Of a stretch of 34,445 bases of DNA, positions 6,747-33,423 are shown piece after piece. Source of the DNA: a virus (Duplodnaviria; Heunggongvirae; Uroviricota; Caudoviricetes); IMG/VR virus record IMGVR_UViG_2617271086_000002, positions 1-34,445 of that record; one strand, 5' to 3'. Made by a program: the position numbers and the translations under genes. The notes under the pieces are model-generated. The model searched no databases and was not told the DNA's origin. It worked only from the letters and a program-made list of their open reading frames with translations. The first letter of the stretch is position 1. Each line of letters begins with the position of its first letter.

Positions 6747-6749
6747 GAA

Positions 6750-9406: not shown

Positions 9407-9635
9407 TATCCTCTCTCCATTTCTCAATGCGCCGCTGGTTATCCGCTTTTACCGCCAGATGGTCATTCAAGAGAGCAATGTCGTACAAATCGACAGAGCC
9501 ATCTTTAAGTGCTGTATAAGGAATTAACCCGGCGTCAACCGGATTGAGAAGGTAAGACAGCCCGTCCGGCAGGCTGTTAAACGTCAGCCCTGTTGCAGGC
9601 TCTGCGCCGTGCTGGTAAGGGGTGTAGGCAAAAAA
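9396..9635 (-). other. Programmed -1 ribosomal frameshift site and GT-type extension of the tail assembly chaperone
   Basis: The mRNA heptamer U_UUU_UUG (plus 9629-9635) is in the zero frame as AAU UUU UUG, 15 codons before the stop. The -1 frame is then open for 77 codons (AYTPYQHGAEPATGLTFNSLPDGLSYLLNPVDAGLIPYTALKDGSVDLYDIALLNDHLAVKADNQRRIEKWREDNER) and stops at 9396-9398, just past the tape measure ATG. Confidence 0.6.
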
Positions 9636-10036: not shown

Positions 10037-10039
10037 GTA

Positions 10040-10480: not shown

Positions 10481-10490
10481 TCACTTCCCC

Positions 10491-11636: not shown

Positions 11637-11639
11637 AGC

Positions 11640-12206
11640 TTAATCTCCGAAAAAGATGACTGGTGCTTCCACCAGCGATTTAATACCGTACTCGCGCACA
11701 ACCTTCCGGCGCAGACGCACCGTCATATCGTAGCGGCGGACCCATTGCTGATTAATAAGTTCAGGGAAGGGAGTCAGACCTGTGTAATCGCCAAGAGACA
11801 GCCCCAGCGCATTCAGTGCTGCATTGTTCTGCGGCACAGATATACCGTCACGAAACCGGGACGCATACACCATCCCCGCCGGTCCATAAAACGAAGCCAT
11901 ACACTCAATCGTTTCATGCCGCCAGAGCTGAGAGCCATCATCGGTCTGTCTGGTGAATGCCGGACTGTCATCACCTGACCATCCGATAACCCCAAACGCA
12001 CACCAGTTCGTTTCAACCGGTAGCAGTGGCGGCTGCTCTTTCTGCCAGCGCGGGCGAACCATCCCGGCAGACAGACCGGAAACGTTACGCATCCACTGGC
12101 TTAACAGCCTGTCGAGCGCTTCGTCATAATCCGGATCGCCACTGGTTGGTATTAACCATCCGCGCTCTGTACTGGTGTTATTGCTCAACCGGAGTTCCCC
12201 CATCAA
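11640..12206 (-). CDS. Virion protein (neck / tail completion, putative)
   Basis: 188 aa ORF between the head-tail joining genes and the sheath gene. Confidence 0.4.
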   Translation of the reverse strand: MMGELRLSNNTSTERGWLIPTSGDPDYDEALDRLLSQWMRNVSGLSAGMVRPRWQKEQPPLLPVETNWCAFGVIGWSGDDSPAFTRQTDDGSQLWRHETIECMASFYGPAGMVYASRFRDGISVPQNNAALNALGLSLGDYTGLTPFPELINQQWVRRYDMTVRLRRKVVREYGIKSLVEAPVIFFGD

Positions 12207-12567
12207 ACGGCATCAACTCACAATGCGCCTGAACGAATCCGGCCCCATAAGCTGTATACGGGTCGACGAAGGTCACACGATAATCACGGCCCTGATACGT
12301 CACGATATCGGCATCACGCCCAGTCTGTCCCTGCGTCAGTCGCTCAGTCGTCACAATCAGAATTGCACCGCTGATTACCTGCCCTGCCTGCATACGGCGG
12401 TTTTCCAGAGAGCGATCAACAGTTACGACTCCGGCAAACTGCTTTTTAACTTCACTGTCGCTACCGATCCCGTCCTCATCCACCGTTTGCACACGCCGTG
12501 TTACCCACAAATTGAAGTCGCAAAAATCGGGGTCAAAAAGCACATCTGTTACATCAAGAGTCGGCAT
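12178..12567 (-). CDS. Head-tail joining protein, putative
   Basis: 129 aa ORF in the head-tail connector block. Confidence 0.4.
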   Translation of the reverse strand: MPTLDVTDVLFDPDFCDFNLWVTRRVQTVDEDGIGSDSEVKKQFAGVVTVDRSLENRRMQAGQVISGAILIVTTERLTQGQTGRDADIVTYQGRDYRVTFVDPYTAYGAGFVQAHCELMPFDGGTPVEQ

Positions 12568-13108
12568 CTTTATTCCTCACAACATGGGTAATGGCTCTGC
12601 GATATTGCCCGGTGTCGATTAGCGGTTTCACCAGATCGGTTCCGGGGGACTCGCCAGCAGCGCGTCGGGCAAGCTCCGCTTTCGCCCCTTTACGCCCTCG
12701 ACGCGCGCGGGCTTCAACGGTGCTATCAGCAAGCGGTGTAAAGCCGGTAATAGTCATGTAACGCCTGACGCCATTAGCGGCCAGCGTTCCGGCACGGTTG
12801 AGCGCTCTTTCCGCACCCGCCGCATTACCATCAAGCGCAGCCTGCGCCGCTGCTTTGAGCTGCGGCACTGTCTGTTCTTCTACCGATTTAACGCCGGGGA
12901 CCAGGTGAGGTCGTGGCGGGATGTTTTGCGCCGGTGAGCCGTATTCGTTGAGGTAACCGATCCCGGCATTACCAAACGGAACATCCTCACGCTCGCTGTC
13001 TGCTTCCGGGATACCCACCAGCACTTCTTTTTTACTGATGGATTTGAGCGCATCCAGAATGGCCTGAGCGTTATCCACCCTCGTTGTTACACCGCTTTTG
13101 AAACTCAT
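12554..13108 (-). CDS. Head-tail connector / head completion protein, putative
   Basis: 184 aa ORF in the same block. Confidence 0.4.
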
Positions 13109-13512
13109 AGCTGGCGACCACCTGCACCGAACATCGTGATCAACTGATAAAATTCAGCGCCATATCGGGTGTTATTCCAGAAACCTGCATCAGGATTCAG
13201 CGTCGCGCTGGTGTCATAGCTGACGCTTACCTTGTCAACAGACTTGGAGGATTGAACACCATTGGTTGAACCGCCCGGGCCGCCAACCAGCATTGCCCGA
13301 CTATCTGCCGCCCATAGCGTCATGTAGTGAGCCACGAACAACTCGGCAAAGTACGGAAACAACTTTTTTCCGGTGACGTTTTCGCTCAGCAGTTCATCGG
13401 CCAGATTCAGACGAAACTGGATTTGCGCTTCGGGATATTTGGCAGGGTCAGCAAACTGCGGGAAGTCGCGGCGAAAATCACTTACCGCTGGCAGACTTTG
13501 ATTCTTTGGCAT
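13105..13512 (-). CDS. Head-associated protein (DUF4054-like), putative
   Basis: 135 aa ORF downstream of the major capsid gene. Confidence 0.4.
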
Positions 13513-13699
13513 TTTTTACCTCGTTACGCGCGTCTGTGGCTTTGCCAACGGATACTTCCGCGTGCGCACGAGTGAACCAGTGCGTGGCAACTTCTTCCTC
13601 CACAGCATGACGGCCTTTAACAAACTCGCGCCGTGAACCGTCGGGAAGCGTGAGCACAAACGGGGTATGTACGTGTATTACTGCATTATTTTTTGCCAT
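13478..13699 (-). CDS. Small hypothetical protein
   Basis: 73 aa ORF with an AAGGA ribosome-binding site 8 nt upstream of the ATG at 13697-13699. It overlaps the downstream gene by 35 nt. Confidence 0.4.
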
Positions 13700-13714
13700 C
13701 GGGTCATCCTTAAT

Positions 13715-13732
13715 GGCCCCCGCCAGGGGGCC
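13715..13732 (-). other. Strong GC hairpin immediately 3' of the major capsid gene (no U-tract)
   Basis: GGCCCCC-gcca-GGGGGCC, a perfect 7 bp stem beginning 10 nt after the capsid stop codon. Confidence 0.5.
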
Positions 13733-13741
13733 ATGTGGCTG

Positions 13742-14683
13742 TTAAATGCCATCAACGTACGAAATGGTTTCTTTGTACACTGGCTCAACCGCACCCAGCT
13801 TGCCGTAGTAAGTGACGATCTGATACAGACTGCGATACTGCACCGGCACGCTCTGAAGCGGAACCAGCGGGTAGCGGACGTATTTTTTATCGTTGGTATA
13901 CGCAACCATGCGATCCTTTTTCCCCACACCACGGCCTTTCAGCCATTTAACCGCGCGGATATTCAGCGGAACACCGTTCTGGTGATAGCTGATGGTGTTG
14001 GTCTGAAGGTACGTCAACAGGGACTGGTTACCCGCAGATGAAACGATGATGCTGGACAACAGAGCAAACTGCTCAGGTGGGATCAGCAAATCACTCGGAA
14101 CCACAGAGTAACCGGAAGCGGCCCACGCATCAGACAGCACCTGGTTAATGCTTGCGCGGATTTCGTCCGGTGTTGAGGTTGCCCACGTTTTGGCAGCGTT
14201 GTTGACAGGCACGCCGTCCAGGGTAACAAGGCCTTTCAGGTTTAATGCTGAATCGCCAACATATACCTGTTCATCGTTATCCATCTGCCATTTCAGTTGC
14301 ATCCCGTCATACTTCTGCGTATCGATCGGGCGTCCGACCTGCTGAGCAGCCTGCAATTCTATGACCGTCCAGCCAAGTTCCATCCCCCACAGGTTCAGCG
14401 GGTTACCGGATTTGCCGATATCCACGTTCACGCCAGCAATAGCGGTTGAGTCTTTGCCTACCCAGTTTTTGCCATTCGGATTTGCGCCAGTACCCGCAGC
14501 GGCGAAGCTGGTATTCGTCCAGCTGGAAATGTCATCTGCGATGGAGACATCTTCACGCAGTTGGATATCGCGGGTCCAGGTGTACCCCACTAGTGGCAGG
14601 TTCAGCGTCTGGTCTAGTCGTTCCAGCTCCCCGATGAGAAAGGCACCAGAGCTGTCAACGGTTGCCTGATCAAAAGTAATCAT
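13742..14683 (-). CDS. Major capsid protein
   Basis: 313 aa ORF following the scaffold and decoration-like genes. Confidence 0.7.
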   Translation of the reverse strand: MITFDQATVDSSGAFLIGELERLDQTLNLPLVGYTWTRDIQLREDVSIADDISSWTNTSFAAAGTGANPNGKNWVGKDSTAIAGVNVDIGKSGNPLNLWGMELGWTVIELQAAQQVGRPIDTQKYDGMQLKWQMDNDEQVYVGDSALNLKGLVTLDGVPVNNAAKTWATSTPDEIRASINQVLSDAWAASGYSVVPSDLLIPPEQFALLSSIIVSSAGNQSLLTYLQTNTISYHQNGVPLNIRAVKWLKGRGVGKKDRMVAYTNDKKYVRYPLVPLQSVPVQYRSLYQIVTYYGKLGAVEPVYKETISYVDGI

Positions 14684-14694
14684 TCGTCTGTTCC

Positions 14695-15198
14695 TTAAAT
14701 CTTCCAGGAAATTTCTGCATTGCCGTTAGCATCACCGGCACCTGTGAATTCAGCGTTGGTCAGCACCACGTTTTTGCCACTGACTGACGTGGCCATGAAT
14801 CCACCCAGCGGCACTTTGATGGATCCATCAGTGGAGACGACAACGTATACCGGGTCGCCTTTTTTGATGGTGCTGGCATCAAAATCAGAACCGAGATTAA
14901 CGGTCACGTAGCCACGCTTCATGGCGTCGCCCGGGAAGTTCTTGCCACTCCCCACCTGGCGAACCATGTCCGGCTGCGACGTGGTCGGATAAGGGCGCAC
15001 ATAGATCCCCTTCACCTTGTCTGCGGTATCACCATCTGCCAGCGGTACGAAAAAACCGTCAGCATCGTATTTACCAGCCAGCCCATAGGCAGCAAAGGCG
15101 TTATCGGATTTAAGGACCACCGGTTCGACGGTTAAGTCCTGCGGGCGAGAGATAGCCCCGGCAATGCCAACAGGCATCCGGTACAGATATGCAGTCAT
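14695..15198 (-). CDS. Head structural / decoration-like protein (DUF2190-like)
   Basis: 167 aa ORF immediately upstream of the major capsid gene. Confidence 0.5.
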   Translation of the reverse strand: MTAYLYRMPVGIAGAISRPQDLTVEPVVLKSDNAFAAYGLAGKYDADGFFVPLADGDTADKVKGIYVRPYPTTSQPDMVRQVGSGKNFPGDAMKRGYVTVNLGSDFDASTIKKGDPVYVVVSTDGSIKVPLGGFMATSVSGKNVVLTNAEFTGAGDANGNAEISWKI

Positions 15199-15202
15199 TG
15201 GA

Positions 15203-16423
15203 TTATCCTTTGCGGTTAGACCAGAATTCGGCGTTTTGTTTGTTCAGGGAAGCGATGCTGGTCATGCCCATATTTTGGCGTTGTGCATCGCCCATGGTGG
15301 TACGGGTGTTTCGCCCTTTGGCAATCTCTGACACGGCATTAAACGCCATGTTGACCGATTGTTTCGGTAATTTGCGGATATCCGCATCACCGACTATCTG
15401 GCGAACCAGCGTTTTGTCAGCAGAAGCCAGAACCTCGCGTTTGAACGCGGTCGGTTTCATCTTACGGCTCAGATCGATACCCGGAACGATAACTTCGGCA
15501 CGCCAGGCTGAGTCACCAGTAATCGTGGTTTCCTCTTCATCGTCCTCGCCGTCACCGGTCGGATTATCGTCAGGCTTATTGTCGTTATCGCCCGTCGCAT
15601 TTCCTTCCAGCTTAGCCAGCAGGGCTTTCAGTAATGTTTTGAGGTCATCATCACTGTCGCCGGTTGGACCTCCACCCATCTCTGGTGCTTTGTCCGGTAG
15701 TGGTTGCTGCGGGGACAGGTTGATGTTGAGATTAACGCCCTGCGGCAAATCCCCCTCATCTCCTGTAACCGATGCGGGAGCCGACTCCACCAGTTCGTTC
15801 ATGGTGTCGGCATCTCCTGTCTTGATGGCTGCACGCATGCGGTTCCACCAGTTTTTCTTTTGATTTGCCATTGTGTCTCTGTCTCCAATTGCACAACGAT
15901 TTCCGGCTCTGCCTTTGGGGACAAGAGCCACATGGTTTCCGGTAATATCGACCTGCTCGGCTTTACCTGGTTCGGTCTGCTCGTACTCCGCGTCATAGCC
16001 GCACGACACTTCACGCAGGCCATCTTCGATAAGCTGAATGGCGTTTTCGTCTTTGACGATAAGGTCAGCCAGCATCAAATCAGACTGCTCACCCGTCCCG
16101 CGCCGGACATTCTGGAGGTGCCCGACCGCAAGCTCTTTCCAGTTCTCGGGATTTACCAGCCGCACATTCCCGTTTTCATCTTCAGGATGCAGGATCGTGA
16201 TGCTCATCCCTTCGAATGAGGCGAGCGTGGCCGGATGGAATACCTGCTCAGGAGAACGCGTTACGACTATCTCACCGAGCTTGTCGGGTTTGAGGTTTGG
16301 CAGATCGGCAGCGCCGTAGAGCTGCTTACCCGTTCGACCTATCGGCACGTCTTTGCACAGCAGCGAGCCGTCAGCCAGCTGATAGCGGGTTTCCCCCAGC
16401 CGGGTATTGAAAAAATATTTCAT
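15203..16423 (-). CDS. Head scaffold / maturation protease (DUF2213-like) with an acidic low-complexity linker
   Basis: 406 aa ORF with an internal Asp/Glu/Gly-rich segment (..TGDNDNKPDDNPTGDGEDDEEETT..), located between the head-morphogenesis and capsid genes. Confidence 0.55.
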   Translation of the reverse strand: MKYFFNTRLGETRYQLADGSLLCKDVPIGRTGKQLYGAADLPNLKPDKLGEIVVTRSPEQVFHPATLASFEGMSITILHPEDENGNVRLVNPENWKELAVGHLQNVRRGTGEQSDLMLADLIVKDENAIQLIEDGLREVSCGYDAEYEQTEPGKAEQVDITGNHVALVPKGRAGNRCAIGDRDTMANQKKNWWNRMRAAIKTGDADTMNELVESAPASVTGDEGDLPQGVNLNINLSPQQPLPDKAPEMGGGPTGDSDDDLKTLLKALLAKLEGNATGDNDNKPDDNPTGDGEDDEEETTITGDSAWRAEVIVPGIDLSRKMKPTAFKREVLASADKTLVRQIVGDADIRKLPKQSVNMAFNAVSEIAKGRNTRTTMGDAQRQNMGMTSIASLNKQNAEFWSNRKG

Positions 16424-16437
16424 GGTTTACCTGCGAT

Positions 16438-17211
16438 TCAGGCGAGATAAGAATGAGGGTTGGGAAAAACGATTTCTTTATAACAGCGACAATTCGGGAG
16501 CTCGCCAGCGTGACCGGTCATGCCATCAAGCGTTGGAGGTTTGCCCCATTCGACAAACTTACCTTCCATCTCCCGATGAGAATGCCGGACGTCGCCATCT
16601 TCGGCTGTACGCCAGATATAACCATTCGAGCCGATTGACAGCGCACGCGCCTGATCCAGCGCGCCGGTTGCACGTCCAAGCTCGGTACGGGCGATAAGGT
16701 TCGCTCGTGAGCGTGACACGTCACCGGACGCTGCTATCTCTTTCGCGAATGGTTCAGCGCGGCCACCAGACACAACGGCCTCGATGGCCTTGTTCTGAAT
16801 GTCATACACCCGATCGGCGGCCTCAAGAGGCAGTGACTTGATGTACTTAATTTGCTCGGCGACGATGGATTTCATCACCTGGCCTACCGGGGCGCGGTCG
16901 ACCATGTTGCGCAGCTCTGCGCTGATGTTCCGGCTATGCTGACGCCACTGCTTTTCATTCTGGCGTGCAATGTCGGCGGTAAAGTTCTCAGCAACCTTCG
17001 TCGCCCAGGGGGTGATGATTTCGCTGTAGCGCTCCAGCGCATCCATTATTTCGGTGACACTGTCATTTGAACCATCGTAGCGACCATTTACGATATCCCC
17101 GACCGCCCGCGCTATCTGCCGTAGGCTCGTTCGATATCGGATTTCCGCCTGGCGACTCTGGCGGTTTGTCGCCAAGTTCGCCGATGCCTGGCGGCGCTTC
17201 GTCTTCGGCAT
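16438..17211 (-). CDS. Head morphogenesis protein (Mu gpF / SPP1 gp7 family). The true start may be the ATG near 17046.
   Basis: 257 aa ORF downstream of the portal gene, with a conserved C-terminal region (..HSHREMEGKFVEW..PNCRC). Confidence 0.65.
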   Translation of the reverse strand: MPKTKRRQASANLATNRQSRQAEIRYRTSLRQIARAVGDIVNGRYDGSNDSVTEIMDALERYSEIITPWATKVAENFTADIARQNEKQWRQHSRNISAELRNMVDRAPVGQVMKSIVAEQIKYIKSLPLEAADRVYDIQNKAIEAVVSGGRAEPFAKEIAASGDVSRSRANLIARTELGRATGALDQARALSIGSNGYIWRTAEDGDVRHSHREMEGKFVEWGKPPTLDGMTGHAGELPNCRCYKEIVFPNPHSYLA

Positions 17212-18529
17212 TCTCTATGTCCTCGTCGGTAATGGATGCCCCGATGCCGGTTACGTCAGAATTTTCGCGCAAATCGGTCATAGCGGCTTTCAGTGTCATC
17301 AGACCATCACCCAGCGCCGTACTGATTGCGTTAGTAGTGTTTAACGCCACCGTTGAGCGATCGACATCAGACATTTGCCAGAGCGGGTTAAACTCAAACG
17401 TGAAATCGTCCGGCAGCGGCTTACCGAGTTCCGAGCGGTGCATAATGTCCAGTATCCGGCGCATCGGCATCCGTAAGCGGCGCTCCTGCAATGAACTCAC
17501 CCGGTCATAATAGTTGGCGAGGTCTGCGTCACCAGTTGAGAAGCCTTTCGGGGATTGACCAAACAGGCGTACCAGCGGGATGCCGACGGCACCGCTGATC
17601 TGCTCAGCGAACTGCGAAAGAATGTCATCCAGACCACTGAAGCTGTACTGGTGGGTTTCGAAAGTATCTTCTGAATCCATCAGCGTCATGCCTTCATTGC
17701 TCTGGAACTGGCGGATCAGATCGATGTTCTTCAGCAGCGCTTCGAACGCGGGACCACCCAGCGCAATAAGTTCACGGAGTTTTTTCACTTTGTAGGTACG
17801 CAGATGCGCTTTGTAGACCAGCTGCGCCGCGCCGACAGTGGCGCTGTCGAACGCAGTAAGCCGATCCCAGATTCGCTCTACAACCGACATTCCCCATTCG
17901 TTCTCGGTCATCTTCTGCTGGAATGGCAGCGTGACGCCATCGAAGCGAATCAGGCGGCTGTGATGGATGCGCCAGGCCGGGATGCCCGTTGCAGTGGTCA
18001 CCACGTCGTAAAACTCAGGTTTGCCGAGATCTGGCCCCATCTCTTTAATGCGGCGGGTCAGCACCGGGTTAATCATCCAGCGGTCGAGCGGGAGAATGCC
18101 CTTAAACTTGCCTTCTCCAATGGTTTCGAGCCGCAGCGGGGTCATTGGTGCCTGCCCCTCAATCATGATGAAGCCAACCGCACCGCCATAGAGACGCGAC
18201 CATTTCAGCACGTCATTCAGCGCATCCCAGATTTGCAACTCATCCAGTTGTGATTCGAGAATGCCGCGATCTTTTGCATCAATTTCCGAAGTGATGCGAA
18301 TGCCTTTGCGGGTCATATCATCCGGGATAGCGTCGACCGCTTCGCCGATAATCCAGGACGAACGATAGGACCATTCCACCAGCATGCGGTTACGACTGGT
18401 GAAATTAGCCCGGTAGGTGGATGCTGAGTGCTGGTTAGGTGTCTGCATCCCCACGCGGGCAACAAAGTTCTCATAGCCATCAGCGGTGGCCTGTGCCGTT
18501 CGCCGCGTGGCTTGTTTGTTTCGTGCCAT
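17063..18529 (-). CDS. Portal protein
   Basis: 488 aa ORF immediately downstream of TerL (start/stop abutting at 18529), with an acidic C-terminal tail. Confidence 0.7.
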   Translation of the reverse strand: MARNKQATRRTAQATADGYENFVARVGMQTPNQHSASTYRANFTSRNRMLVEWSYRSSWIIGEAVDAIPDDMTRKGIRITSEIDAKDRGILESQLDELQIWDALNDVLKWSRLYGGAVGFIMIEGQAPMTPLRLETIGEGKFKGILPLDRWMINPVLTRRIKEMGPDLGKPEFYDVVTTATGIPAWRIHHSRLIRFDGVTLPFQQKMTENEWGMSVVERIWDRLTAFDSATVGAAQLVYKAHLRTYKVKKLRELIALGGPAFEALLKNIDLIRQFQSNEGMTLMDSEDTFETHQYSFSGLDDILSQFAEQISGAVGIPLVRLFGQSPKGFSTGDADLANYYDRVSSLQERRLRMPMRRILDIMHRSELGKPLPDDFTFEFNPLWQMSDVDRSTVALNTTNAISTALGDGLMTLKAAMTDLRENSDVTGIGASITDEDIENAEDEAPPGIGELGDKPPESPGGNPISNEPTADSAGGRGYRKWSLRWFK

Positions 18530-20151
18530 CAGGCCTGTCTCCCTAGCAGCTCCCAGATGTTCAGGGCTGAATTCGTTGGCGCGTAGCTGATCATCACCGA
18601 GTCGGCAAGGTTTGGCGACCGGGTTCCATCAGGCTGTTTATCAATAACGATTTTTCCCACACCATTAATGGAATAGGTCGGCTGCGAAAGCTCGATGATG
18701 AGTTTATCTTTGAGTGCCATGCTACTGCTGATTGAGATGATTTCGTCCGGGTTGTAGGCCATGCCCTCAACCACGGCGCGATAGGTGTTCTGGAAAAGCT
18801 TGCGTAGCCACCACCAGCTCTGGGCCTTGGCGTTGGCGAAGAAGTCCTTGTTCAGGCGTGCGGCCTGTCCGTTGTCCCCGCGCACCGCTTCATCGTCCGG
18901 ATCAAATACCGCGCCACTACCTCGAAACGGTGTGGCGAGTATTGACGGTCGGCGCGCAGCGTTACGCAGTTCGTTGATAGCGCGTGCATCGCCGCGAACG
19001 CCAGCGCCCAGCCCGTCCTCGTCAAAGCGAAACTCTTCGAGGTTGTCCTGTTCGCAAAAACCGAAGACCTTCTCGACGGACTGATAAATGTCGCTGCCCA
19101 CACCAGACCATTCCCGCACATTTTCCAGGAGGAAGCCATGACGGGTGGAAAAGGCATTTTTGTCCCTGCCTTCATCAGCGACATCCATCGCGCCAAGTCG
19201 TTTGCCTGTTGGCTGGATACCCAGTTTGATATGCGCATCAACGGCAGCCTGTACCCATTCGGATGGAATCAGGACGCCTTCCGCTGATGCGCTGTAGTTC
19301 AGATCAAGTTCCTGTGCCACCACCACCGGATTATCGATTTTCTCGCATTCCCTGCGATACCACTCTTCATCCTTGCGAGGATCATCCCGCCAGTGGAATG
19401 TGAATACCGGTATCTTCCCGCCGTGACGCTTCTGCGCGAACGGGTTCGCCATGCCGTTAACCGAACTCAGGTCGATACGGCAACGCGTCGTTTGTGACAA
19501 CGCCGCATCAATCAGCAGAGGACGCTGAAGGAATGCAGCCTCATCAACCAGATAAAGCGTGGTACGGTCACCACGACCAATATTATCGCCAGCCTCGCCT
19601 TTGATAACGGCACCAGTTTCAGGAAACTCAACACGCATATATGGCGCGTGCTTCTTCTCGCTCCACGAACCGCGAAACTCTACAGGCAGTGTTTCCACGA
19701 ACTTGCGCGCCTTCCAGAACAATGCTTTCGGGTCACCGGTGCTGTCGACGTATTCCTCTTTACGGGAGCCGAAACCGATAACCATTTCTTTGTTGAAGAG
19801 ACAAAGCGAGCAGGCCAGTCCGATCGCGGTCCAACTGAGCCCCATTTCACGGGATTTTTCGGTAATACCATTCTCCCGATTGCCCCAGCGTTCCATAATC
19901 CAGTGGATCCACTCCTCCTGCTTAGGGAATAGTAAAAACGGAATGGTCACCGGCAGGCCATAATCAATATTACGCGGGTCCGTTGTCATGCCCCAGTCGA
20001 TGATGAACTGAGCCGGATTGGTTCGGTAAAACTGTTTTAGTGCAGGCAATATTTCAGGATTCTGGCGAATGCGCTGTAGGCGTTCCATCCGCCATTCAAA
20101 AACCATCTGGTAATCAGGATGTTTAAAATCGAAGGGGAATGGTAACGGCAT
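18529..20151 (-). CDS. Terminase large subunit (TerL)
   Basis: 540 aa ORF following TerS, with ATPase-like and nuclease-like regions. Confidence 0.85.
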
Positions 20152-20153
20152 AC

Positions 20154-20759
20154 TTAGCCCATCATTTTTCTATACGCCTCTGCAGCCTGCTCCGGCGTTA
20201 AGTTGGTAATTTCTGTTCTGACTGGTCCTCCATCAGCGCCAGTCACTTCATTTTTGACGTTGTCTTTAAACGCCTGAACAGAAACATGACGCCCAAGCAA
20301 CTCAAGGTTTTTAACCTTATCAGGCCATTTGATTTTCTTCAGAAGTGCGGCGCTATCTGCGGATACCATCTCCACGACATCCATTCCTGATAGCGTTGTG
20401 CGCCATACCTTAGGCCAGTCTTTAATCGGCTTCAGTTCGCCATTGGCAAGCAGAATGTCAAGCACGTCCATCTGATCGATTTCAGTCAGCCGTCGCAATA
20501 CATAGGCAGCGTCTATACCTACCTCTTCATTGCGTTCAGCCTTTAGCTCAGCAATGCGATCTGCTATGTCAGGTTTTGACAGGTTCTCGCTACCAGTGGC
20601 GCGAGCAGTTTTCTCGCTGTAACCCGCCCTGATAGCTGCCTGAGTGGCGTTTAAATCTTTTAAATATTCCCTGCAGAACAGTTCCTGCTTAGGTGTGAGC
20701 TGTTTCAAATCACACCTCCGAAACATTGCTCCAATTTCTATGATTAACGATGTCAGCAA
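20154..20759 (-). CDS. Terminase small subunit (TerS). Likely start at an internal ATG near 20726.
   Basis: Roughly 190-201 aa ORF directly upstream of TerL, with an N-terminal HTH-like motif ([25 protein letters not shown]). Confidence 0.7.
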
Positions 20760-21207
20760 TCATGGTAGTGGATACGCCATATCTCTTTGCTAAAGACCTA
20801 AGCCCATTACCTACACTCCCGCGCACATACTCGCGGCGAATGCAGATGACATCGCACTCTTTTAATTTCGCCATTCCGTTCTTTTCACCTGAACGGTCAG
20901 GGTATGAGTTTCTGCCTCGCCTTGACCTGTCACGATTATTGTCAGCGACAGTACCTATAATCAGATGGTCAGGATTCACGCATGATGGATTATCGCATTT
21001 ATGCCTAACAACCAGGTCCTTGATGCTATCTAGCGAAATTCCGTTAGCTTCGCAGTATGCGATTCGATGTGCGTAGTGCGGCTTTCGTGAAATGTGCTTC
21101 TGCCCATACCCTCGCTTATTTATGTAGCCGGTATAAATCACACACTCTCCGACATACACATCATCCGGATGGGAAAACAGCTCTTGTTTGTCTGTGAGCT
21201 TTGCCAT
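20710..21207 (-). CDS. HNH endonuclease (packaging-associated)
   Basis: 165 aa ORF with an H-N-H / Cys-rich motif (HRIAYCEANG...RHKCDNPSCVNPDHLIIGTVADNNRDR), immediately upstream of TerS. Confidence 0.75.
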   Translation of the reverse strand: MAKLTDKQELFSHPDDVYVGECVIYTGYINKRGYGQKHISRKPHYAHRIAYCEANGISLDSIKDLVVRHKCDNPSCVNPDHLIIGTVADNNRDRSRRGRNSYPDRSGEKNGMAKLKECDVICIRREYVRGSVGNGLRSLAKRYGVSTTMIADIVNHRNWSNVSEV

Positions 21208-21434: not shown

Positions 21435-21977
21435 TTAATTAGTGAGTCCGGGGATTACGGTTTGCCCGTGCTGTTCAAGGCGTTCAATTCTCGCCAGTAG
21501 CTGAGGCTTCTTAATTTTTCCCCAGCGATTTAGCAGGCGACCTGACATGCTGGCAACATCCTTCTCTTTCATGTACTCCAGCATTACGGCATTTCGCTCT
21601 TCTTCAAATTGACGATTACCAACCTGAAGCATGGCGTACATCCAGTTGAATGCGTTGATGTAAGCAATTTTGATACGCATTGCTTCTTTTTTGGTGTAGG
21701 ACATAACCAAAAGCATCAACCCATCCTTGCGGAGACGGTAGAATTTTTGCGGCTTACCATTCTGTAACTCATTGTTTTTATAGCAAAGCTCAAAGTTGAG
21801 CTTTGTATCAAACTCAGGAGGGCAAGCTTCTATGGTTCGTTCAATGTCACGAACCACGTTCTTCGGCAGCTTTCCAAATGCTTTTGCCACCATAAAAGAA
21901 TCTGTAACCGGATCGTTGTTTGCTACAAAAATTAGGTCTCTGAAATCTATATCGTTAACAACGGTTGGGTAGTTCAT
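21435..21977 (-). CDS. Rha-family phage regulatory protein. Start at the internal ATG 21975-21977; the longer track ORF is rejected.
   Basis: 180 aa from MNYPTVVNDIDFRDLIFVANNDPVTDSFMVAKAFGKLPKNVVRDIERTIE..., with an AAGG ribosome-binding site upstream of this ATG. Confidence 0.65.
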   Translation of the reverse strand: MNYPTVVNDIDFRDLIFVANNDPVTDSFMVAKAFGKLPKNVVRDIERTIEACPPEFDTKLNFELCYKNNELQNGKPQKFYRLRKDGLMLLVMSYTKKEAMRIKIAYINAFNWMYAMLQVGNRQFEEERNAVMLEYMKEKDVASMSGRLLNRWGKIKKPQLLARIERLEQHGQTVIPGLTN

Positions 21978-22124
21978 TGCGTCTTTACCTTTTAGAAAGA
22001 TGAGCCTGTTCGCACAGAAAAGCCGTCCCCGAGATGGTCGCCACCATATACGGCAATTCTCAGGCTCAGCTTTCTGAAAGACTCGGGGTTTATATGCGCT
22101 GCGATGCGCGTTTACTGAGGACAC

Positions 22125-22148
22125 AAAAAAGCCCCGCAAATGCGAGGC
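22125..22148 (-). terminator. Rho-independent terminator downstream of Rz
   Basis: Minus strand GCCUCGC-AUUU-GCGGGGC (7 bp stem with one G-U pair) followed by a U6-7 run (plus 22125-22130 aaaaaa). Confidence 0.6.
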
Positions 22149-22322
22149 TAAATCCTGGTGTTTGTGATGACTGTCTCTTATCTCAACGCAGCCCCTTACC
22201 GCGCGCCAGATGCTCAATATCAAGCATCAGCAATGAGATGTTTAATCTGGATTCACTCCAGAAGTGATCACCACCCTGTCTACAGAGCCAGATGTGAAGG
22301 ATGATGAGTAAAATTATCGCTA

Positions 22323-23812: not shown

Positions 23813-23888
23813 TGGTGCTGGTTAACGGACTTGAACCGCTACCCATTCGCTTACAAGGCGACTGCTCTACCATTGGAGCTAAACCAGC
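23813..23888 (-). tRNA. tRNA with anticodon UGU (tRNA-Thr), 76 nt including encoded CCA
   Basis: Minus-strand sense sequence GCTGGTTTAGCTCCAATGGTAGAGCAGTCGCCTTGTAAGCGAATGGGTAGCGGTTCAAGTCCGTTAACCAGCACCA. It has a 7 bp acceptor stem, GG in the D-loop, anticodon loop CTTGTAA, T-loop TTCAAGT and a 3' CCA. Confidence 0.7.
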
Positions 23889-23893
23889 ATATT

Positions 23894-23968
23894 TGGCGGG
23901 ACAGCGTGGACTCGAACCACGATAAGAAGGTTAACAGCCTTCCGTAATGACCTTTATACGACTGACCC
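23894..23968 (-). tRNA. tRNA-like gene with anticodon GUU (tRNA-Asn), 75 nt. It has two U-U mismatches and could be a degenerate copy.
   Basis: Minus-strand sense sequence GGGTCAGTCGTATAAAGGTCATTACGGAAGGCTGTTAACCTTCTTATCGTGGTTCGAGTCCACGCTGTCCCGCCA. It has a perfect anticodon stem (GAAGG/CCTTC), loop CTGTTAA, T-arm CGTGG-TTCGAGT-CCACG and CCA; acceptor pair 4-68 and D-stem pair 13-22 are U-U. Confidence 0.5.
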
Positions 23969-24031
23969 AAATAAAAAAAGCCACCGTTGCAACTTAAGAG
24001 TCACTAACGGCAGCTTACCCTCTAATTATGG

Positions 24032-24550
24032 CTAAATGGCTAATTGCATGTCAAGGCTTTTAACGGCAACATGCTTAACTTTCTCAACACGTTTACGCAT
24101 TTTGAAAGCATTTTGCATTGGCTGGTATAAAACAAATAATGACGCTTTCAGGATGTCGTCAATTTCGTTTCTACAGGTTGCCAGTGAAGGTTTTCTCCAT
24201 CCCTCGCCACCACGTCCACACATCTTGCGTGGCTTTGCAGTCGCGTGATAGTAGGATGCAATTGCTCGCTTAGATGAACCATGAGCGTAGTAGCTGAGGA
24301 GGATGCCAAAGGCTTTCTTGTCAATGTACATGACGGAATCGACGACCTGAGAAATCAACATTCCATCATCATCATTGCACATTGGCCTTGTCATAACTCT
24401 TCCCGGCTCTACGCTCTCCATGAACTTCGCTATTACGCTGCTCATGCGCTTTTCCAGACGACCTGAATAAACCCATGCGCCCCACAGTTCAAGCCAGCCA
24501 TTCAGCCACTCGTGCTGCTCTTTGGTGAGGTTTAGTTCTCTTATGCCCAT
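24032..24550 (-). CDS. Q: Late-gene antiterminator Q (Phage_antitermQ-type family)
   Basis: 172 aa ORF in the canonical position between the nin region and the lysis cassette. It carries WGAW and C-N-DDDGMLI motifs recalled for this family. Confidence 0.65.
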   Translation of the reverse strand: MGIRELNLTKEQHEWLNGWLELWGAWVYSGRLEKRMSSVIAKFMESVEPGRVMTRPMCNDDDGMLISQVVDSVMYIDKKAFGILLSYYAHGSSKRAIASYYHATAKPRKMCGRGGEGWRKPSLATCRNEIDDILKASLFVLYQPMQNAFKMRKRVEKVKHVAVKSLDMQLAI

Positions 24551-24735: not shown

Positions 24736-25094
24736 ACGTTCTCCAGTTCGGTGATTTTTATTCCAAGCCGTCCGCCTGGTACTTTCACGCCACGAATTAC
24801 GCGAATGTCATCGAATTGCTCGTCGTCTTCCGCAAATCCGGCGTGGATAAGGGAGTCGAGTAAACCTTTCAGGATGTTGTCGAGGTCGCGGCGGCGGGAG
24901 TCTGGAACGTCTGCGATGACTTTGATGCGGAGTCGTGATTTGGTGAAAATGTCTAACTTAAGTTGGCGGATGATTTGCTGAACGTCTTTTCGGTATTTCT
25001 GGCCTTTATCGCTGATGTAGTATTGGCTTCCCCGTCTTCGCCAGTAGGTATTCACCGACGGCGGGTATGGAAGCACAAACTGATATTCGTTCAT
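24732..25094 (-). CDS. rusA: RusA Holliday-junction resolvase
   Basis: 120 aa ORF with RusA motifs (..LPYPPSVNTYW...DVPDSRRRDLDNILKGLLDSL..). Confidence 0.85.
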   Translation of the reverse strand: MNEYQFVLPYPPSVNTYWRRRGSQYYISDKGQKYRKDVQQIIRQLKLDIFTKSRLRIKVIADVPDSRRRDLDNILKGLLDSLIHAGFAEDDEQFDDIRVIRGVKVPGGRLGIKITELENV

Positions 25095-25381
25095 GACTTA
25101 ATCTTCCCCTCCTTCAGCAGTATCGCCTGCGTCCTGATCACGCCTTCGAGGTGGTAAAGCCTGGCGTCTTTGTTGTCGAGATTATGGGTGCGTCGGTCGA
25201 TTTCATCGTGACACGCGCTACAAGCCCATGCGCCGATCAGGTCGTCAGGCTTCATTCCCGTTCCGCAAATTCCAGCCATCCGGTAATGTGCCAGAACTGT
25301 AGTTTCAGGGTTGCCATTGCATACGCCGTAAATACGTACCTGGCATTCTCTGCCGCGTGCTTCTTTGCGTAGGTTAGCCAT
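25091..25381 (-). CDS. YbcO-like (DUF1364) Cys-rich putative nuclease
   Basis: 96 aa ORF closely resembling the DLP12 YbcO pattern (MANLRKEARGRECQVRIYGVCNGNPETTVLAH...CSACHDEIDRR). Confidence 0.65.
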   Translation of the reverse strand: MANLRKEARGRECQVRIYGVCNGNPETTVLAHYRMAGICGTGMKPDDLIGAWACSACHDEIDRRTHNLDNKDARLYHLEGVIRTQAILLKEGKIKS

Positions 25382-26103
25382 TAAGCAGCCTCCCCGGTTA
25401 CTTTCAGCATTCCGTTATCGAGAAGCTTTCTGGTCAGCCACTGTTGACCACGCCCGGTGATTTTTGTGGTGAACGATATCTGTATCCCGTGATTTGTGTT
25501 GACCGCTGTTTCTTTCACTGTGAAATAGCCGCGATCCATATATTCCTGCATTGGCACATTGCGCCGGGAACCTGAAGCAATAAGGATTTTGTGATCGCGC
25601 ATCCACGCAAACAGTTTGTTTGGACCAATTCCAACAACCTTTGCAAAGTTTCCAATCAAAATTCCGCTGGCCTCGCCAACGCGATCGGCAAACTCAACTT
25701 TAGGTGCGGCAATTGCGAGCTGGTTTTCCAGTTGCATTTTCTGCTCAGCAAGATCAGCAGCAAGGCGCAACGCTTCCGGTAGCGTTTTGGGGATATTAAC
25801 CGCAGCTTCTTCAAGCTCTCGCCAGCGGTCAACAAGGCGGGCGGTGAACTCTGGCGACAACTGGGCAACAACAACAATACTGTCTCGCTTACCTTGTTCG
25901 CCTTCGAAGACGTAATGCTCGTACTGAACATTGAACCCTAAGTTATTGATTCTTCCGGAAACCTCAATTTGAGGAAGCCGGATAACACCATTTTTAGCCA
26001 GCGTTTCGATGGTACGTTTCACATTGTCATGACGCTTACCCACCAACTCAGCGATTTCAATGCTTGTCATTTTGATGGCATTGCCATTTATTAACTCATT
26101 CAT
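25381..26103 (-). CDS. Antirepressor-like protein (Rha-type N-terminal domain plus KilA-C / Ant C-terminal domain)
   Basis: 240 aa ORF. The N-terminus (MTSIEIAELVGKRHDNVKRTIETL) is Rha-like and the C-terminus (..LFAWMRDHKILIASGSRRNVPMQEYMDRGYFTVKE..) is KilAC-like. Its ATG overlaps the ninF stop. Confidence 0.65.
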   Translation of the reverse strand: MNELINGNAIKMTSIEIAELVGKRHDNVKRTIETLAKNGVIRLPQIEVSGRINNLGFNVQYEHYVFEGEQGKRDSIVVVAQLSPEFTARLVDRWRELEEAAVNIPKTLPEALRLAADLAEQKMQLENQLAIAAPKVEFADRVGEASGILIGNFAKVVGIGPNKLFAWMRDHKILIASGSRRNVPMQEYMDRGYFTVKETAVNTNHGIQISFTTKITGRGQQWLTRKLLDNGMLKVTGEAA

Positions 26104-26272
26104 CGTCTTCTTCCTCGTACATTGAGCTATTCGGATCGCTCATCAGTTCTGCGCAGCAATCGGAGCACACGTGAACTTCCAGCACATGCAGCTTCTGACC
26201 GCAGTTAGCGCACGTTAAAGCTCGCTCGACGCTTTCTTTCTGGTATTGAAGGGATTGGGATGGGCTAAGCAT
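26096..26272 (-). CDS. ninF: NinF (58 aa; below the ORF-track cutoff)
   Basis: Manual translation gives [58 protein letters not shown], which fits lambda NinF. It is coupled at both ends. Confidence 0.7.
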   Translation of the reverse strand: MLSPSQSLQYQKESVERALTCANCGQKLHVLEVHVCSDCCAELMSDPNSSMYEEEDDE

Positions 26273-28161: not shown

Positions 28162-28188
28162 AAAAAAGGGCTACTGTGTAAATAGCCC
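28162..28188 (-). terminator. Rho-independent terminator after the helicase gene (position analogous to lambda tR2)
   Basis: Minus strand GGGCTA-(9 nt loop)-TAGCCC followed by a U6 run (plus 28162-28167 aaaaaa). Confidence 0.55.
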
Positions 28189-28215
28189 CTGTTATTAGCT
28201 CAGTGATGTAGATGG

Positions 28216-29592: not shown

Positions 29593-30410
29593 GCAATCCC
29601 CCTGTCTGCAAACTTCCCTTCCCGTACTCCCGTTAACGAATCTTCCCTCAGCAGGTAATCAAAATCTGCCGTCCAGCCAGTGTCGTTGTCTCCGAAGTAA
29701 AACGGCTTGGCCTGATGCACAAACGCCCTGACATACGCTCTGAAACCGTCCACGTTTGGCGTTTTCAGTTGCGGGATGATTTTCTTCAGGCGGCGTTTTC
29801 GTTTCTCGTTGACCGCAACAGCGTGTGGAAGTCTGTCACCGACTTCGGTGTTGTAGGCGTTCAGGAAGGATTCGTAGTCGATTCGTTCTGCCTTGCGACG
29901 TTCAGGTTTAACCTGCCCATCGCCGCCCCCGTTAGGGGGTAAGGGGGTATTTGTATTTATTGTCTTTTGTATATTGTCTTTTGTGTTTAGCCGACTTGGC
30001 TTATACCCATTAGCCGACTTGGCTAATGTTTTATTAGCTGTTTTAGCTAATGTTAAGCTGTCCTGGCTAATCCACTGCGAAACCACCTTGTTCACTCCGA
30101 TTTTCACGCCATCAGCAATGAGGAATTTACGCTCAATAAGCTGGCGCTTGGCAGCGCAAACATGAGTGTGATGAATACCTGTCATGGCTGCTATCTGCGT
30201 GTTTGTGAGTCGATCCATCGGCTTATTGAATCCGTATGTCTTGCGCATGATAGCGAGCATCACCTTCAACTGCCGGACGGTTAAATCAGCCATCAGCAGA
30301 CTGTCGGTAATCTCGTTAGCAACGCGCATGAAACCATCTTCGGTATCTGCCACGCGATGCTCCACGACCTCCAGTTGAGGCCTGTAATCAGCTAACTTAA
30401 CGACGCCCAT
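29589..30410 (-). CDS. Replication initiator (lambda O / P22 gene 18-like) with internal origin iterons
   Basis: 273 aa ORF with an N-terminal HTH-like region and a low-complexity central linker encoded by the iteron repeats. Confidence 0.75.
29935..30090. repeat. Candidate replication origin: direct repeats (iterons) and an AT-rich stretch inside the O-like gene
   Basis: TAGCCGACTTGGCT occurs twice (29988-30001 and 30011-30024), followed by TTAGCT-type degenerate repeats, and preceded by ttgtcttttgt twice. Confidence 0.6.
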
Positions 30411-31002: not shown

Positions 31003-31188
31003 TTATGCCGCTTGGCGGTAAGCACTTTCTTGATACTTCAGGGCGCCAGCTGTAACGATTTCCAATCGATAGGCGTCTTTCTCTGGGATAACTTCTTTCC
31101 ACTGAGAGACTGCTGCATCGCTAATGCCTAGTGCTTTAGCAACAGCACGCTGGGTTCCGAAGTGGTCAATAACATCTTTTTTGTACAT
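31003..31188 (-). CDS. cro: Cro repressor (P22-type)
   Basis: 61 aa ORF (MYKKDVIDHFGTQRAVAKALGISDAAVSQWKEVIPEKDAYRLEIVTAGALKYQESAYRQAA) matching P22 Cro from memory. GGAG ribosome-binding site upstream. Confidence 0.85.
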   Translation of the reverse strand: MYKKDVIDHFGTQRAVAKALGISDAAVSQWKEVIPEKDAYRLEIVTAGALKYQESAYRQAA

Positions 31189-31199: not shown

Positions 31200-31268
31200 G
31201 AAATTAAAGAACACTTAAATTATCCACCAAAGGAATCTTAAGTCAAGTTTATTTAAGATGTCTTAACT
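31200..31268. promoter_or_regulatory. OR operator region with divergent PR/PRM (P22-type 18 bp operators)
   Basis: Near-palindromic 18-mers ATTAAAGAACACTTAAAT (31203-31220) and ATTTAAGATGTCTTAACT (31251-31268), plus a CTTAAG-centred site between them. The second operator abuts the c2 ATG. Confidence 0.65.
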
Positions 31269-31919
31269 ATGAATACACAACTGATGGGTGAGCGTATTCG
31301 CGCTCGCAGAAAAGAACTCAAGATTAGGCAGGCTGCCCTTGGCAAGATGGTTGGCGTGTCTAATGTTGCTATTTCCCAATGGGAGCGATCTGAAACTGAG
31401 CCCAATGGCGAAAACCTATTGGCCTTAGCCAAGGCTTTGCAGTGCTCCCCTGATTACCTGTTGAAAGGAGAGGATAGTCTTTCAAACATTGCCTATCACA
31501 GCAGGCATGATCCAAGAGGTTCGTATCCTCTAATTAGTTGGGTAAGCGCAGGATGTTGGATGGAAGCTGTAGAGCCATATCATAGGCGTGCAATAGATAA
31601 CTGGTACGACACAACGGTAGATTGTTCTGAAGACTCTTTTTGGCTCGACGTTAAAGGCGATTCAATGACTGCCCCGGCAGGACTGAGTATTCCTGAGGGG
31701 ATGATTATTCTCGTCGACCCAGAAGTCGAGCCACGTAATGGAAAGTTGGTAGTCGCCAAACTTGAAGGAGAAAACGAGGCGACATTCAAAAAGTTAGTTA
31801 TTGATGCCGGTAGAAAATTCCTGAAACCACTCAATCCACAATACCCAATGATTGAAATCAATGGGAACTGTAAAATCATTGGCGTTGTCGTTGATGCCAA
31901 GCTAGCAAACCTTCCTTAA
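31269..31919 (+). CDS. c2: C2 repressor (P22 c2 / lambda cI family, LexA-like autocleaving repressor)
   Basis: 216 aa ORF matching P22 C2 from memory, with an N-terminal HTH (QAALGKMVGVSNVAISQWERS) and a C-terminal S24 peptidase-like domain (..GDSM..). Confidence 0.9.
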   Translation: MNTQLMGERIRARRKELKIRQAALGKMVGVSNVAISQWERSETEPNGENLLALAKALQCSPDYLLKGEDSLSNIAYHSRHDPRGSYPLISWVSAGCWMEAVEPYHRRAIDNWYDTTVDCSEDSFWLDVKGDSMTAPAGLSIPEGMIILVDPEVEPRNGKLVVAKLEGENEATFKKLVIDAGRKFLKPLNPQYPMIEINGNCKIIGVVVDAKLANLP

Positions 31920-32123: not shown

Positions 32124-32233
32124 CCAGAACTTGAGTGGTTTTGGGGATGGCGCGAATTGCAGCTGCAAGACAGCGATCGAGAAGATAAGCACCTCGACGC
32201 GTCATGCGCCAAAGCCACTTAAAGGAGACCATC

Positions 32234-32506
32234 ATGGTAACCATTGTCTGGAAAGAATCCAAAGGTACGGCAAAAAGCCGCTACAAAGCTCGCAGAGCAG
32301 AACTTATTGCCGAGCGACGCAGTAATGAAGCACTGGCGCGAAAAATTGCGCTAAAGCTCTCTGGTTGCGTCAGGGCAGATAAAGCAGCATCACTCGGAAG
32401 CCTTCGCTGCAAGAAGGTAGATGAATGCAGTGGAAGTATTTGCCTGCCAAACGTAGCCATTTACGCGGCAGGCTACCGGAAATCAAAACAACTGACAGCG
32501 AGGTAA
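32234..32506 (+). CDS. N-like early antiterminator (P22 gp24 family). Start at the ATG at 32234, which has an AAAGGAG ribosome-binding site.
   Basis: 90 aa ORF with an N-terminal Arg-rich motif (GTAKSRYKARRAELIAERR) and a C-terminus LPNVAIYAAGYRKSKQLTAR resembling P22 gp24. Confidence 0.7.
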   Translation: MVTIVWKESKGTAKSRYKARRAELIAERRSNEALARKIALKLSGCVRADKAASLGSLRCKKVDECSGSICLPNVAIYAAGYRKSKQLTAR

Positions 32507-32509
32507 GTG

Positions 32510-32734
32510 ATGAATCAGACATACATTCCATCATGCTTGAGAAATCTGCCAAAGCAGAAAGCAAAGCCCCGCAAGCAAGCCATAAAGGACGCTAAGGCAG
32601 AAGTTATCGATAAGGCCATTAACCTGCTTAGAGAGGAGTTAAGGAGTGAAAAGCTCAACGGAATGCTGATGCCTTATCAGCGCGGATATCTTTCGGCGAT
32701 TAGTAAGCTGGAAGTATTGAAGAGTGAATTATGA
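32510..32734 (+). CDS. Hypothetical Lys-rich small protein (first gene of the accessory cassette)
   Basis: 74 aa ORF with a GAGG ribosome-binding site, starting 4 nt after the N stop. Confidence 0.45.
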   Translation: MNQTYIPSCLRNLPKQKAKPRKQAIKDAKAEVIDKAINLLREELRSEKLNGMLMPYQRGYLSAISKLEVLKSEL

Positions 32735-33423
32735 ACTATCTGGAATTTCCGGATGGTTCATTGTTTTGGCAGCAAACCACTTATTTGAGAGGAATTAATA
32801 TGTCATCAATCCGCTTAACTACGAGAATGAAAGAGGAAATCGCTCGTAACGCTTTAATTAAGCCTGGGGTTTTCACTGAACTTGAAGAAGTAACAAAGTT
32901 AAAGAACCAGCTTGCACTTGACGCCAGAGTTATTGCGTTTGGCGGTAAAAAGAAAACTGAGGAAGTGGATCAGTTATCATCCAAGTTGGTAGCTATAAGT
33001 GAAGAACTTGAAAAGATGGGATGTTCATTTTACTCATACGATGTTAGTTCTACTTCAATTTATCTTACTGTATCTGGCAGAAGGGTTGGATGGCTTTCAT
33101 ATGGGGAAGACGGCAACGGCGAAGATATATTGCTCCCTACTCCGACCAAAGATAAATGCATGTTTGACGCAGAACACGAAATAACAAAAAGGTTTGATGA
33201 AATCTGCGCATTGCAACAAAAACTTGAAGCCAAGAAAAAGGATATCGAATCAAATGTATGGGCTGCTTTGAACTCAGTCACAACAGTTAAGCGACTTATT
33301 GAAGTTTGGCCTGAAAGCAAAGAATTGCTACCAAAAGAAGCAGATAAAGCAAGTACAGCACTTCCTGCTTTACGGGTAGAAGATTTGAATAAGATGATTG
33401 GACTTCCTTCCGAGGCCGCATAG
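32731..33423 (+). CDS. Hypothetical AT-rich accessory protein (230 aa), predicted soluble with helical/coiled-coil character; function unknown
   Basis: Long ORF with ATGA coupling to the upstream gene. An alternative start at 32800 has a GAGAGGA ribosome-binding site. Sequence is visibly more AT-rich than the flanking N and c2 genes. The stop codon lies inside a terminator hairpin. Confidence 0.55.
   Translation: MNYLEFPDGSLFWQQTTYLRGINMSSIRLTTRMKEEIARNALIKPGVFTELEEVTKLKNQLALDARVIAFGGKKKTEEVDQLSSKLVAISEELEKMGCSFYSYDVSSTSIYLTVSGRRVGWLSYGEDGNGEDILLPTPTKDKCMFDAEHEITKRFDEICALQQKLEAKKKDIESNVWAALNSVTTVKRLIEVWPESKELLPKEADKASTALPALRVEDLNKMIGLPSEAA

Follow-up and report, generated by a model that had tools for sequence, protein, structure and literature searches.

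We analysed the nin region in 34,445 nucleotides (nt) of the viral record IMGVR_UViG_2617271086_000002 of IMG/VR (positions 1 to 34,445, the window), which cover a part of a prophage from the tail genes to the early-left operon; all absences reported below refer to this window. The gene in question, at 25381..26103 on the minus strand, encodes a protein of 240 amino acids (aa), and a preliminary description had presented it as an antirepressor-like gene. In a protein search of annotated phage genomes, the product is 98.8% identical to Roi of HK620, 93.8% to Roi of H-19B, and 88.4%, over 240 aa, to Roi of HK022. The roi products of many Shiga toxin (Stx)-converting phages are at least 98% identical to it. 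By sequence and position the gene is thus roi, an already described (Clerget & Boccard 1996, J Bacteriol; PMID 8763934) conserved accessory gene of the lambdoid nin region, found in its usual place. Of 5426 complete E. coli genomes, 1044 contain roi DNA, with a maximum of four copies in one genome. It is an already known, ordinary and very common gene, and its apparent anomaly comes from comparison with the wrong antirepressor.

As in HK620 and HK022, roi belongs to the part of the nin region that is bounded by P and Q, and ninF immediately precedes it. The operon of the window contains ninB, ninE, ninX, ninF, roi, ybcO, rusA, ninH and Q, all tightly packed; the order ninF-roi-(ybcO)-rusA-ninH-Q and an overlap of 8 nt between ninF and roi are the same in HK620 and HK022. 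The ninF gene (26096..26272, minus strand) encodes a zinc-ribbon-like NinF protein of 58 aa (Pfam NinF, 51.6 bits). The ATG of roi is inside the 3' end of ninF, so that the two genes share the 8 nt ATGAATGA at 26096..26103 (minus strand), and a Shine-Dalgarno-like GAGGAA is situated at 26111..26116, 5' of the roi ATG. The two elements together (26096..26116, minus strand) form a translational-coupling junction. Of 78 related viral loci, 77 have this junction, 69 in the identical form and eight with a one-base variant. At the other end, the stop codon of roi overlaps the start of ybcO (DUF1364; 25091..25381, minus strand; 96 aa; Pfam YbcO, 150 bits) in the sequence TAATG, which couples translation of roi to that of ybcO as well. 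The TAATG junction was observed 3' of roi in all 78 loci, and ybcO is the next gene in 69 of them.

The Roi protein has two domains. The N-terminal one (aa 12-99; 25807..26070, minus strand) matches Pfam Phage_pRha with 35.1 bits (cutoff 29.9), and the C-terminal one (aa 126-228; 25420..25728, minus strand) matches the KilAC profile ANT (PF03374) with 113.5 bits (cutoff 25.3). Thus both the Rha plus KilA-C architecture and the overlap of the start codon with the ninF stop, noted in the preliminary description, are confirmed. The match to the Rha family (PF09669) is marginal: Roi of HK022 scores 25.2 bits, which is under the cutoff. Roi and P22 Rha are 37% identical over 43 aa (BLASTP, E 1e-6). 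No match to Roi was found in a sequence search of PDB. The Rha domain contains a winged helix-turn-helix (PMC8951638), and the N domain of Roi is predicted to be one as well; in a low-confidence AlphaFold model its secondary structure elements follow in the order strand, two helices, strands. The stretch aa 22-63 (25915..26040, minus strand) is hypervariable and is set between nearly invariant flanks. From the sequence and the secondary structure of the model, it putatively consists of the recognition helix (KRHDNVKRTIETL) and the wing. The KilAC half, a putative effector module, is nearly invariant, being 95-100% identical in nearly all alleles with this KilAC type (one outlier has 82.5%). 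The N domain of Roi recombines with other C domains. An internal start at Met123, which would yield an Ant2-like product, was considered and rejected, as only a weak Shine-Dalgarno-like sequence is found upstream and this methionine varies between alleles.

The coding sequence of the N domain contains a perfect palindrome of 13 bp, CCTCAA-A-TTGAGG (CCTCAAATTGAGG; 25962..25974), which occupies nt 130-142 of roi (CCTGCATTGCAG), that is, codons 44-48. It is a candidate Roi operator. An extended imperfect palindrome around it covers 25954..25982. In the alignment, the palindrome falls within the hypervariable stretch aa 22-63. It is followed by a conserved 27-nt block GTTTCCGGAAGAATCAATAACTTAGGG (25936..25962, minus strand), which contains a perfect core of an integration host factor (IHF) site, AATCAATAACTTA, at 25939..25951 (roi nt 153-165, codons 51-55), 10 nt 3' of the palindrome. 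The IHF core WATCAANNNNTTR is matched perfectly at just two places in the whole 34 kb, one of which is in roi. This is a site predicted from a sequence match; the roi gene of HK022 has one too. All alleles with the motif I-N-x-L-G have the core. The 27 nt after the palindrome (GTTTYCGAAARAATCAATAACTTAGG) are nearly invariant in most alleles, with HK022 and the locus L010 keeping the core and differing in the flank. At the DNA level, roi is significantly similar to P22 rha nowhere but in the IHF block, where 25 out of 27 nt match.

The window allele has a peculiarity at codon 50 (25954..25957), which is GGA (Gly50), whereas most alleles have GAA (Glu50) and only four other loci share Gly50. Through this change, TTCCGAAA becomes TTCCGGAA, a perfect palindrome, and the outer arms TCCGG/CCGGA are made complete. 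Another perfect 13-mer palindrome, that at roi nt 17, is degraded in the remaining alleles and was attributed to chance; a further palindrome occurs at nt 579.

Divergent alleles have a palindrome of a different sequence at exactly these codons, the general form being CCnnCA-N-TGnnGG. The observed types are CCTCAA.TTGAGG, CCTGCA.TGCAGG (the HK022 type), CCGCCA.TGGCG, and CCCCCA.TGGTGG, and a 37%-identical homologue from the alphaproteobacterium Zavarzinia has CTCAA.TTGAG at the same codons. The inner positions change on both sides in a compensatory manner, and one of the pairs that change joins the synonymous third position of a proline codon to the second position of codon 47. Among 17 distinct alleles, 85% of the palindrome cells are paired, compared to 66% in shuffled data, and none of 500 shuffles reaches the observed value. 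In a control with slid registers, 26-37% of the cells are paired. Changes on both sides are seen in four of the six pairs. As for the background, 0.5% of the 13-mers in the window have at least five of six pairs. A table of allele classes demonstrates that the type of the recognition helix and the type of the palindrome go together.

The layout of palindrome and IHF site is also kept in distant homologues of the N domain from the loci L009 (8001..8708), L008 and L012, where the C domain is different, has 130 aa and no Pfam match. The L009 gene is located directly after cro, beside a cI-like repressor gene and ahead of a primase/helicase gene. Near the homologues in L008 and L012, only a cI-like repressor gene was seen, 340-780 bp upstream. 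The niche of the L009-type homologue differs from that of roi.

We believe it reasonably probable that roi is expressed from pR with the help of N, and that its product is a two-module protein whose N domain binds the palindrome in its own gene with the help of IHF. This reading starts from the identity of the gene, its context, its domains, the sequence elements and their covariation, all of which are demonstrated. The N domain, probably a winged helix-turn-helix, would bind the 13-bp palindrome at codons 44-48 as a dimer, and the adjacent IHF site would bend the DNA and stabilise the complex. This matches what was reported for Roi of HK022: the site bound by the protein is said to be in the roi gene itself, in close proximity to an IHF site, with IHF stabilising the binding. 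Moreover, mutants able to grow on IHF-deficient hosts reportedly map in roi. The protein would move jointly with its operator, and the two would diversify in parallel, whatever the immunity type. The complex would most likely autoregulate roi or modulate transcription of the nin operon towards Q, and without IHF, Roi might be left unchecked and be harmful to lytic growth.

Who binds the palindrome and what follows from the binding we infer, and several observations speak against the proposed scheme. The palindromes in L012, L121, L174 and L010 are weak, with three or four pairs out of six. The association of helix and palindrome types could be plain physical linkage, as the two are 30-60 nt apart. 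Conservation of the IHF core is partly coding, since the core overlaps the conserved I-N-N-L-G motif. A hairpin in the mRNA, a possible, if weaker, alternative, would explain the covariation as well. Indeed, RNA folding produced z-scores of about -2.3 for both the window and P22 rha; in HK022, however, the z-score is -0.2 and the hairpin is unsupported. The predicted structure of Roi (pLDDT 43.6; built from an alignment of 18 sequences, all at least 84% identical) is too poor to confirm the folds. Finally, the palindrome is a putative counterpart of the site reportedly footprinted in HK022, and the regulatory outcome considered most likely, autoregulation or a roadblock before Q, is a predicted one.

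The expression scheme follows from the immunity region. The c2 gene (31269..31919, plus strand) encodes a repressor of 216 aa with the Pfam domains HTH_3 and Peptidase_S24, which is 94% identical to P22 C2 over its entire length. A cro gene of the P22_Cro family is found at 31003..31188 (minus strand), and a gene of the CII family and the N gene (32204..32506) are also present. A consensus scan revealed a pR-like promoter, TTGACT-16-GATAAT, between c2 and cro (31219..31246, minus strand), whose position coincides with that of pR in the P22 annotation. This is the predicted source of roi transcription. A terminator-like site at 28190..28166 follows the helicase gene. The consensus scan yielded no promoter-like site at roi, either internal or antisense, and an Rfam search found no sar-like RNA there. 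No perfect LexA box exists in the 34-kb window, and none near roi, which rules out the logic of the LexA-controlled antirepressors of the Gifsy type. By the standard lambdoid regulation, roi would be transcribed from pR after N antitermination; its product would be made only as a delayed-early one, and the gene would be silent while C2 holds pR.

No homologues of P22 Mnt, Arc or Ant were found in the window (the best tblastn E-value, 0.084, falls inside unrelated genes), and Pfam scans revealed no ribbon-helix-helix protein or other repressor among the small neighbouring open reading frames (ORFs). The preliminary description was therefore correct in assigning P22-type c2 immunity to this prophage, in expecting delayed-early co-expression of the gene with the nin operon (which lies downstream of the pR-like promoter and the terminator-like site, with an N gene present), and in noting the absence of Mnt/Arc-like ORFs. 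Its central suggestion, a P22-Ant-like gene lacking the Mnt/Arc control, has to be abandoned. P22 ant needs Mnt and Arc because its own promoter lies outside the control of C2, whereas roi as a gene of the nin operon would be kept silent in the lysogen by C2 itself; thus the missing Mnt and Arc are not anomalous. Further, P22 Ant consists of the domains P22_AR_N (149.7 bits) and P22_AR_C (106.6 bits), neither of which is present in the window protein, and the BLASTP alignment of the two proteins, 25 bits over 37 aa, means no meaningful similarity. The alternatives listed in the same description, that the gene is regulated differently or encodes a replication or exclusion factor, are compatible with these results.

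A Roi protein at least 98% identical to that of the window occurs with ten classes of S24-type repressors (at 80% identity), the classes being formed from divergently oriented S24-type genes upstream in the respective loci. They include the P22 C2 type, the HK620 type and the HK022 type, and further classes which, from their sequences, we take to be 434-like and lambda-like. As a near-identical Roi accompanies ten repressor classes, it is not co-inherited with any immunity type. This spread fits a module whose target travels with it better than it fits a broad-range antirepressor.

The scheme outlined above leaves room for several activities of the KilAC half, since antirepression, dampening of the SOS response, and interference with replication are all compatible with the operator model. 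If Roi were a true antirepressor, its KilAC half would bind and inactivate C2 or the repressors of co-resident prophages; as a protein made from pR once initial derepression has occurred, it would provide positive feedback on induction or induction in trans. The C-terminal part of Roi (aa 61-234) does align with that of the P1-type Ant1 of phage SJ46 over 189 aa, at 55% identity (64.6% with the KilAC domain alone as the query), where ant1 adjoins kilA and repL and KilA carries the same KilAC domain. A resemblance of the C-terminal half of Roi to P1 Ant1 and KilA has reportedly been noticed before. For P1 Ant the antirepressor function is established (Riedel et al. 1993, cited in PMC9043618), the nin-region Ant of Phi24B is a precedent for an antirepressor without Mnt and Arc (PMC3064807), and the RefSeq and PHROGs label for the Roi family is 'anti-repressor Ant'. 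However, these labels are derived from the domain and not from experiment. Judging from sequence, the resemblance of Roi to an antirepressor is confined to the KilAC half and concerns the P1-type Ant1; P1 Ant acts on the C1 repressor of P1, which is unrelated to repressors of the cI/C2 type. No antirepressor but P22 Ant is known to act on C2, and P22 Ant has no similarity to Roi. The KilAC domain as such is not diagnostic of antirepression, because it also occurs in the Vibrio phage ICP1, which is strictly lytic, and in the SOS-suppressing AriS; it is found in P1 KilA as well. The published phenotype of Roi is inhibition, not promotion, of lytic growth (PMC4587872), the opposite direction, and the same protein is found with all ten repressor classes. 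Taken together, this makes the antirepressor function unlikely.

We give about the same low probability to the possibility that Roi is a dual regulator of the AriS kind, whose N domain controls phage genes and whose KilAC domain weakens the SOS response of the host (RecA activity), thus tuning induction or the cross-talk between co-resident prophages. AriS of Listeria is a KilAC protein that dampens the SOS response; its KilAC domain alone blocks induction of SOS genes and lysis, and AriS-like proteins combine a conserved KilAC with an N domain of the AntA/AntB, Bro-N or pRha type, which is the architecture of Roi (PMC9043618). The KilAC query matches 19 records with the host Listeria monocytogenes, as well as proteins of Staphylococcus phages (approximately 39-40%) and of the Enterococcus phage phiEf11 (42%). 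Such an activity would also fit the inhibition of lytic growth. On the other hand, it is known from Listeria only and on overexpression only, and AriS at the native level promoted the lytic pathway (PMC9043618). For enterobacterial KilAC proteins, SOS inhibition is hypothetical, and the repressor is already cleaved once pR is open, so the timing favours an effect on other prophages or host physiology over one on self-induction. Still less credit can be given to Roi as a replication or exclusion factor, which would bind origin-like palindromes and hinder DNA synthesis of its own phage or of a competitor unless IHF is present. The phi80 rha gene is annotated as 'DNA synthesis inhibition in IHF- hosts'; however, it has no palindrome/IHF block. 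Distant homologues of the N domain are located directly after cro, ahead of primase/helicase genes, and genes with Rha domains lie next to cI in the 'Eru' Stx phages. The roi palindrome is one base from CCTCAAATTGGGG, which we take to be a lambda-type ori iteron; the latter sequence is present in three related loci, approximately 3 kb upstream of roi, and these loci also carry the window roi allele. A copy of the palindrome with one mismatch (CCTCCAGTTGAGG) was found at 30368..30380, at the 5' end of the O gene (codons 12-16), and this spot is a perfect CCTCAA-C-TTGAGG in three related loci. It could be a second Roi target. However, by our estimate such a copy is within chance expectation, and the peptide encoded there, PQLEV, is a similar one. 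The presumptive origin of replication of this phage, as judged from the sequence, is a cluster of four iterons of the type TTAGCC-N4-GGCTAA at 29989..30071, followed by an A/T-rich stretch, inside the O gene. These iterons are unlike the roi palindrome, and competition of Roi for the ori iterons of its own phage was thus rejected. Besides, roi is dispensable, since it is interrupted by IS629 in some natural O157 Stx2a phages (PMC4587872).

Returning to the operator model, a more general version of it can be put forward tentatively. Roi and a part of the Rha family may carry their own operator and IHF site within the sequence coding for the DNA-binding domain. The recognition helix, the wing and the palindrome would then constitute a self-linked 'specificity cassette', which diversifies like an immunity region and moves independently of cI/C2. 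If this is true, lambdoid prophages have a second, mostly overlooked layer of regulatory specificity between early and late expression, and the invariant KilAC effector might be directed at the host, for example at RecA, and not at a repressor. The cassette is not general to all Rha genes: it holds for P22 rha and fails for phi80 rha and for the second Rha-family gene of the window. The latter (21435..21977, minus strand; listed as an ORF at 21435..22223 from an upstream TTG) is situated between the lysis and terminase genes and has the P22 Rha architecture, Rha plus ORF11CD3, with no palindrome/IHF block of the kind seen in roi and P22 rha.

The value of these observations is mainly corrective. 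About one in five complete E. coli genomes has roi, and its product is labelled 'anti-repressor Ant' from the name of a domain, whereas the only experimental work on Roi describes a DNA-binding protein that hinders lytic growth. Models of induction of Stx and lambdoid prophages based on annotation only would give Roi the wrong sign. The role of Roi is thinly studied, and the palindrome-plus-IHF cassette offers a concrete and cheap handle for binding and mutational tests; for the KilAC half, the AriS precedent is a testable alternative.

Judging by similarity of its parts, the prophage is a clear mosaic of P22-type immunity, a lambdoid nin region, and late genes (window 1..21000) that match the E. 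coli phage vB_EcoM-611R5 and the Salmonella phage SEN34, and not P22. An HNH endonuclease gene (20710..21207, minus strand) is located directly 5' of the gene of the small terminase subunit (20154..20759) and overlaps it. Genes for tRNA-Thr(TGT) and tRNA-Asn(GTT) were found at 23813..23888 and 23894..23968 (minus strand), between a pR'-like promoter (24054..24025) and the holin gene, a placement resembling that in Stx-type phages. In the early-left operon, downstream of N, a gene at 32731..33423 (plus strand) encodes a protein of 230 aa that matches the Nmad5 domain ('nucleotide modification associated domain 5') over the full length of the domain, with 238.8 bits.

Among the known systems, P22 Ant with the immI regulators Mnt, Arc and sar RNA is similar to Roi in being an accessory regulator labelled 'antirepressor', and the window shares the P22-type C2 immunity. 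However, P22 ant is situated among the late genes, with gene 16 on one side and the tailspike gene on the other, and has its own promoter and repressors, whereas roi is in the nin operon. The P1-type proteins Ant1, Ant2 and KilA share the KilAC domain with Roi and differ in the N-terminal parts, as Ant1 has no Pfam domain there and KilA has KilA-N. P1 ant lies in the immI operon, unlike the nin-region roi. The immI operon is controlled by the c4 antisense RNA. The P1 C1 repressor, the target of P1 Ant, has no counterpart in the window.

Ant of Phi24B is closer in position. Like roi, it is a nin-region gene without Mnt and Arc; it is located directly upstream of roi and is expressed during induction, when it speeds activation of the late promoter (Fogg et al. 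2011, PMC3064807). However, its C domain is of the P22 Ant type, with 82% identity to P22 Ant in the 104 C-terminal residues (PMC3064807), and a tblastn search of the window with P22 Ant found no gene of this type. The AriS family of Listeria has the same logic as Roi, that is, a variable N-terminal regulatory domain (pRha in some members) followed by a conserved KilAC, and AriS, too, is labelled an antirepressor and acts otherwise (Azulay et al. 2022, PMC9043618). Roi, with pRha at the N-terminus and KilAC at the C-terminus, has an AriS-like architecture. Since the AriS family comes from phages of Firmicutes, this likeness is at the level of domains only.

The Rha proteins of P22 and phi80 (Henthorn & Friedman 1995) have an N domain of the Rha family, as Roi does; their C domain is ORF11CD3, not KilAC, and their genes follow the lysis genes. 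Both reportedly inhibit growth in IHF-deficient hosts, a phenotype of the Roi type. In P22 rha, as in roi, the 27-nt IHF block is in the same place and is preceded by a palindrome. The closest relatives are the Roi proteins of HK022, HK620, H-19B and many Stx phages, which are full-length orthologs (88-99% identity, 240-241 aa, Rha plus KilAC). Roi of HK022 is only 74% identical to that of the window in the N domain and 100% identical in the C domain. The embedded palindrome differs likewise, CCTGCA.TGCAG in HK022 and CCTCAA.TTGAGG in the window, and both genes hold the IHF core.

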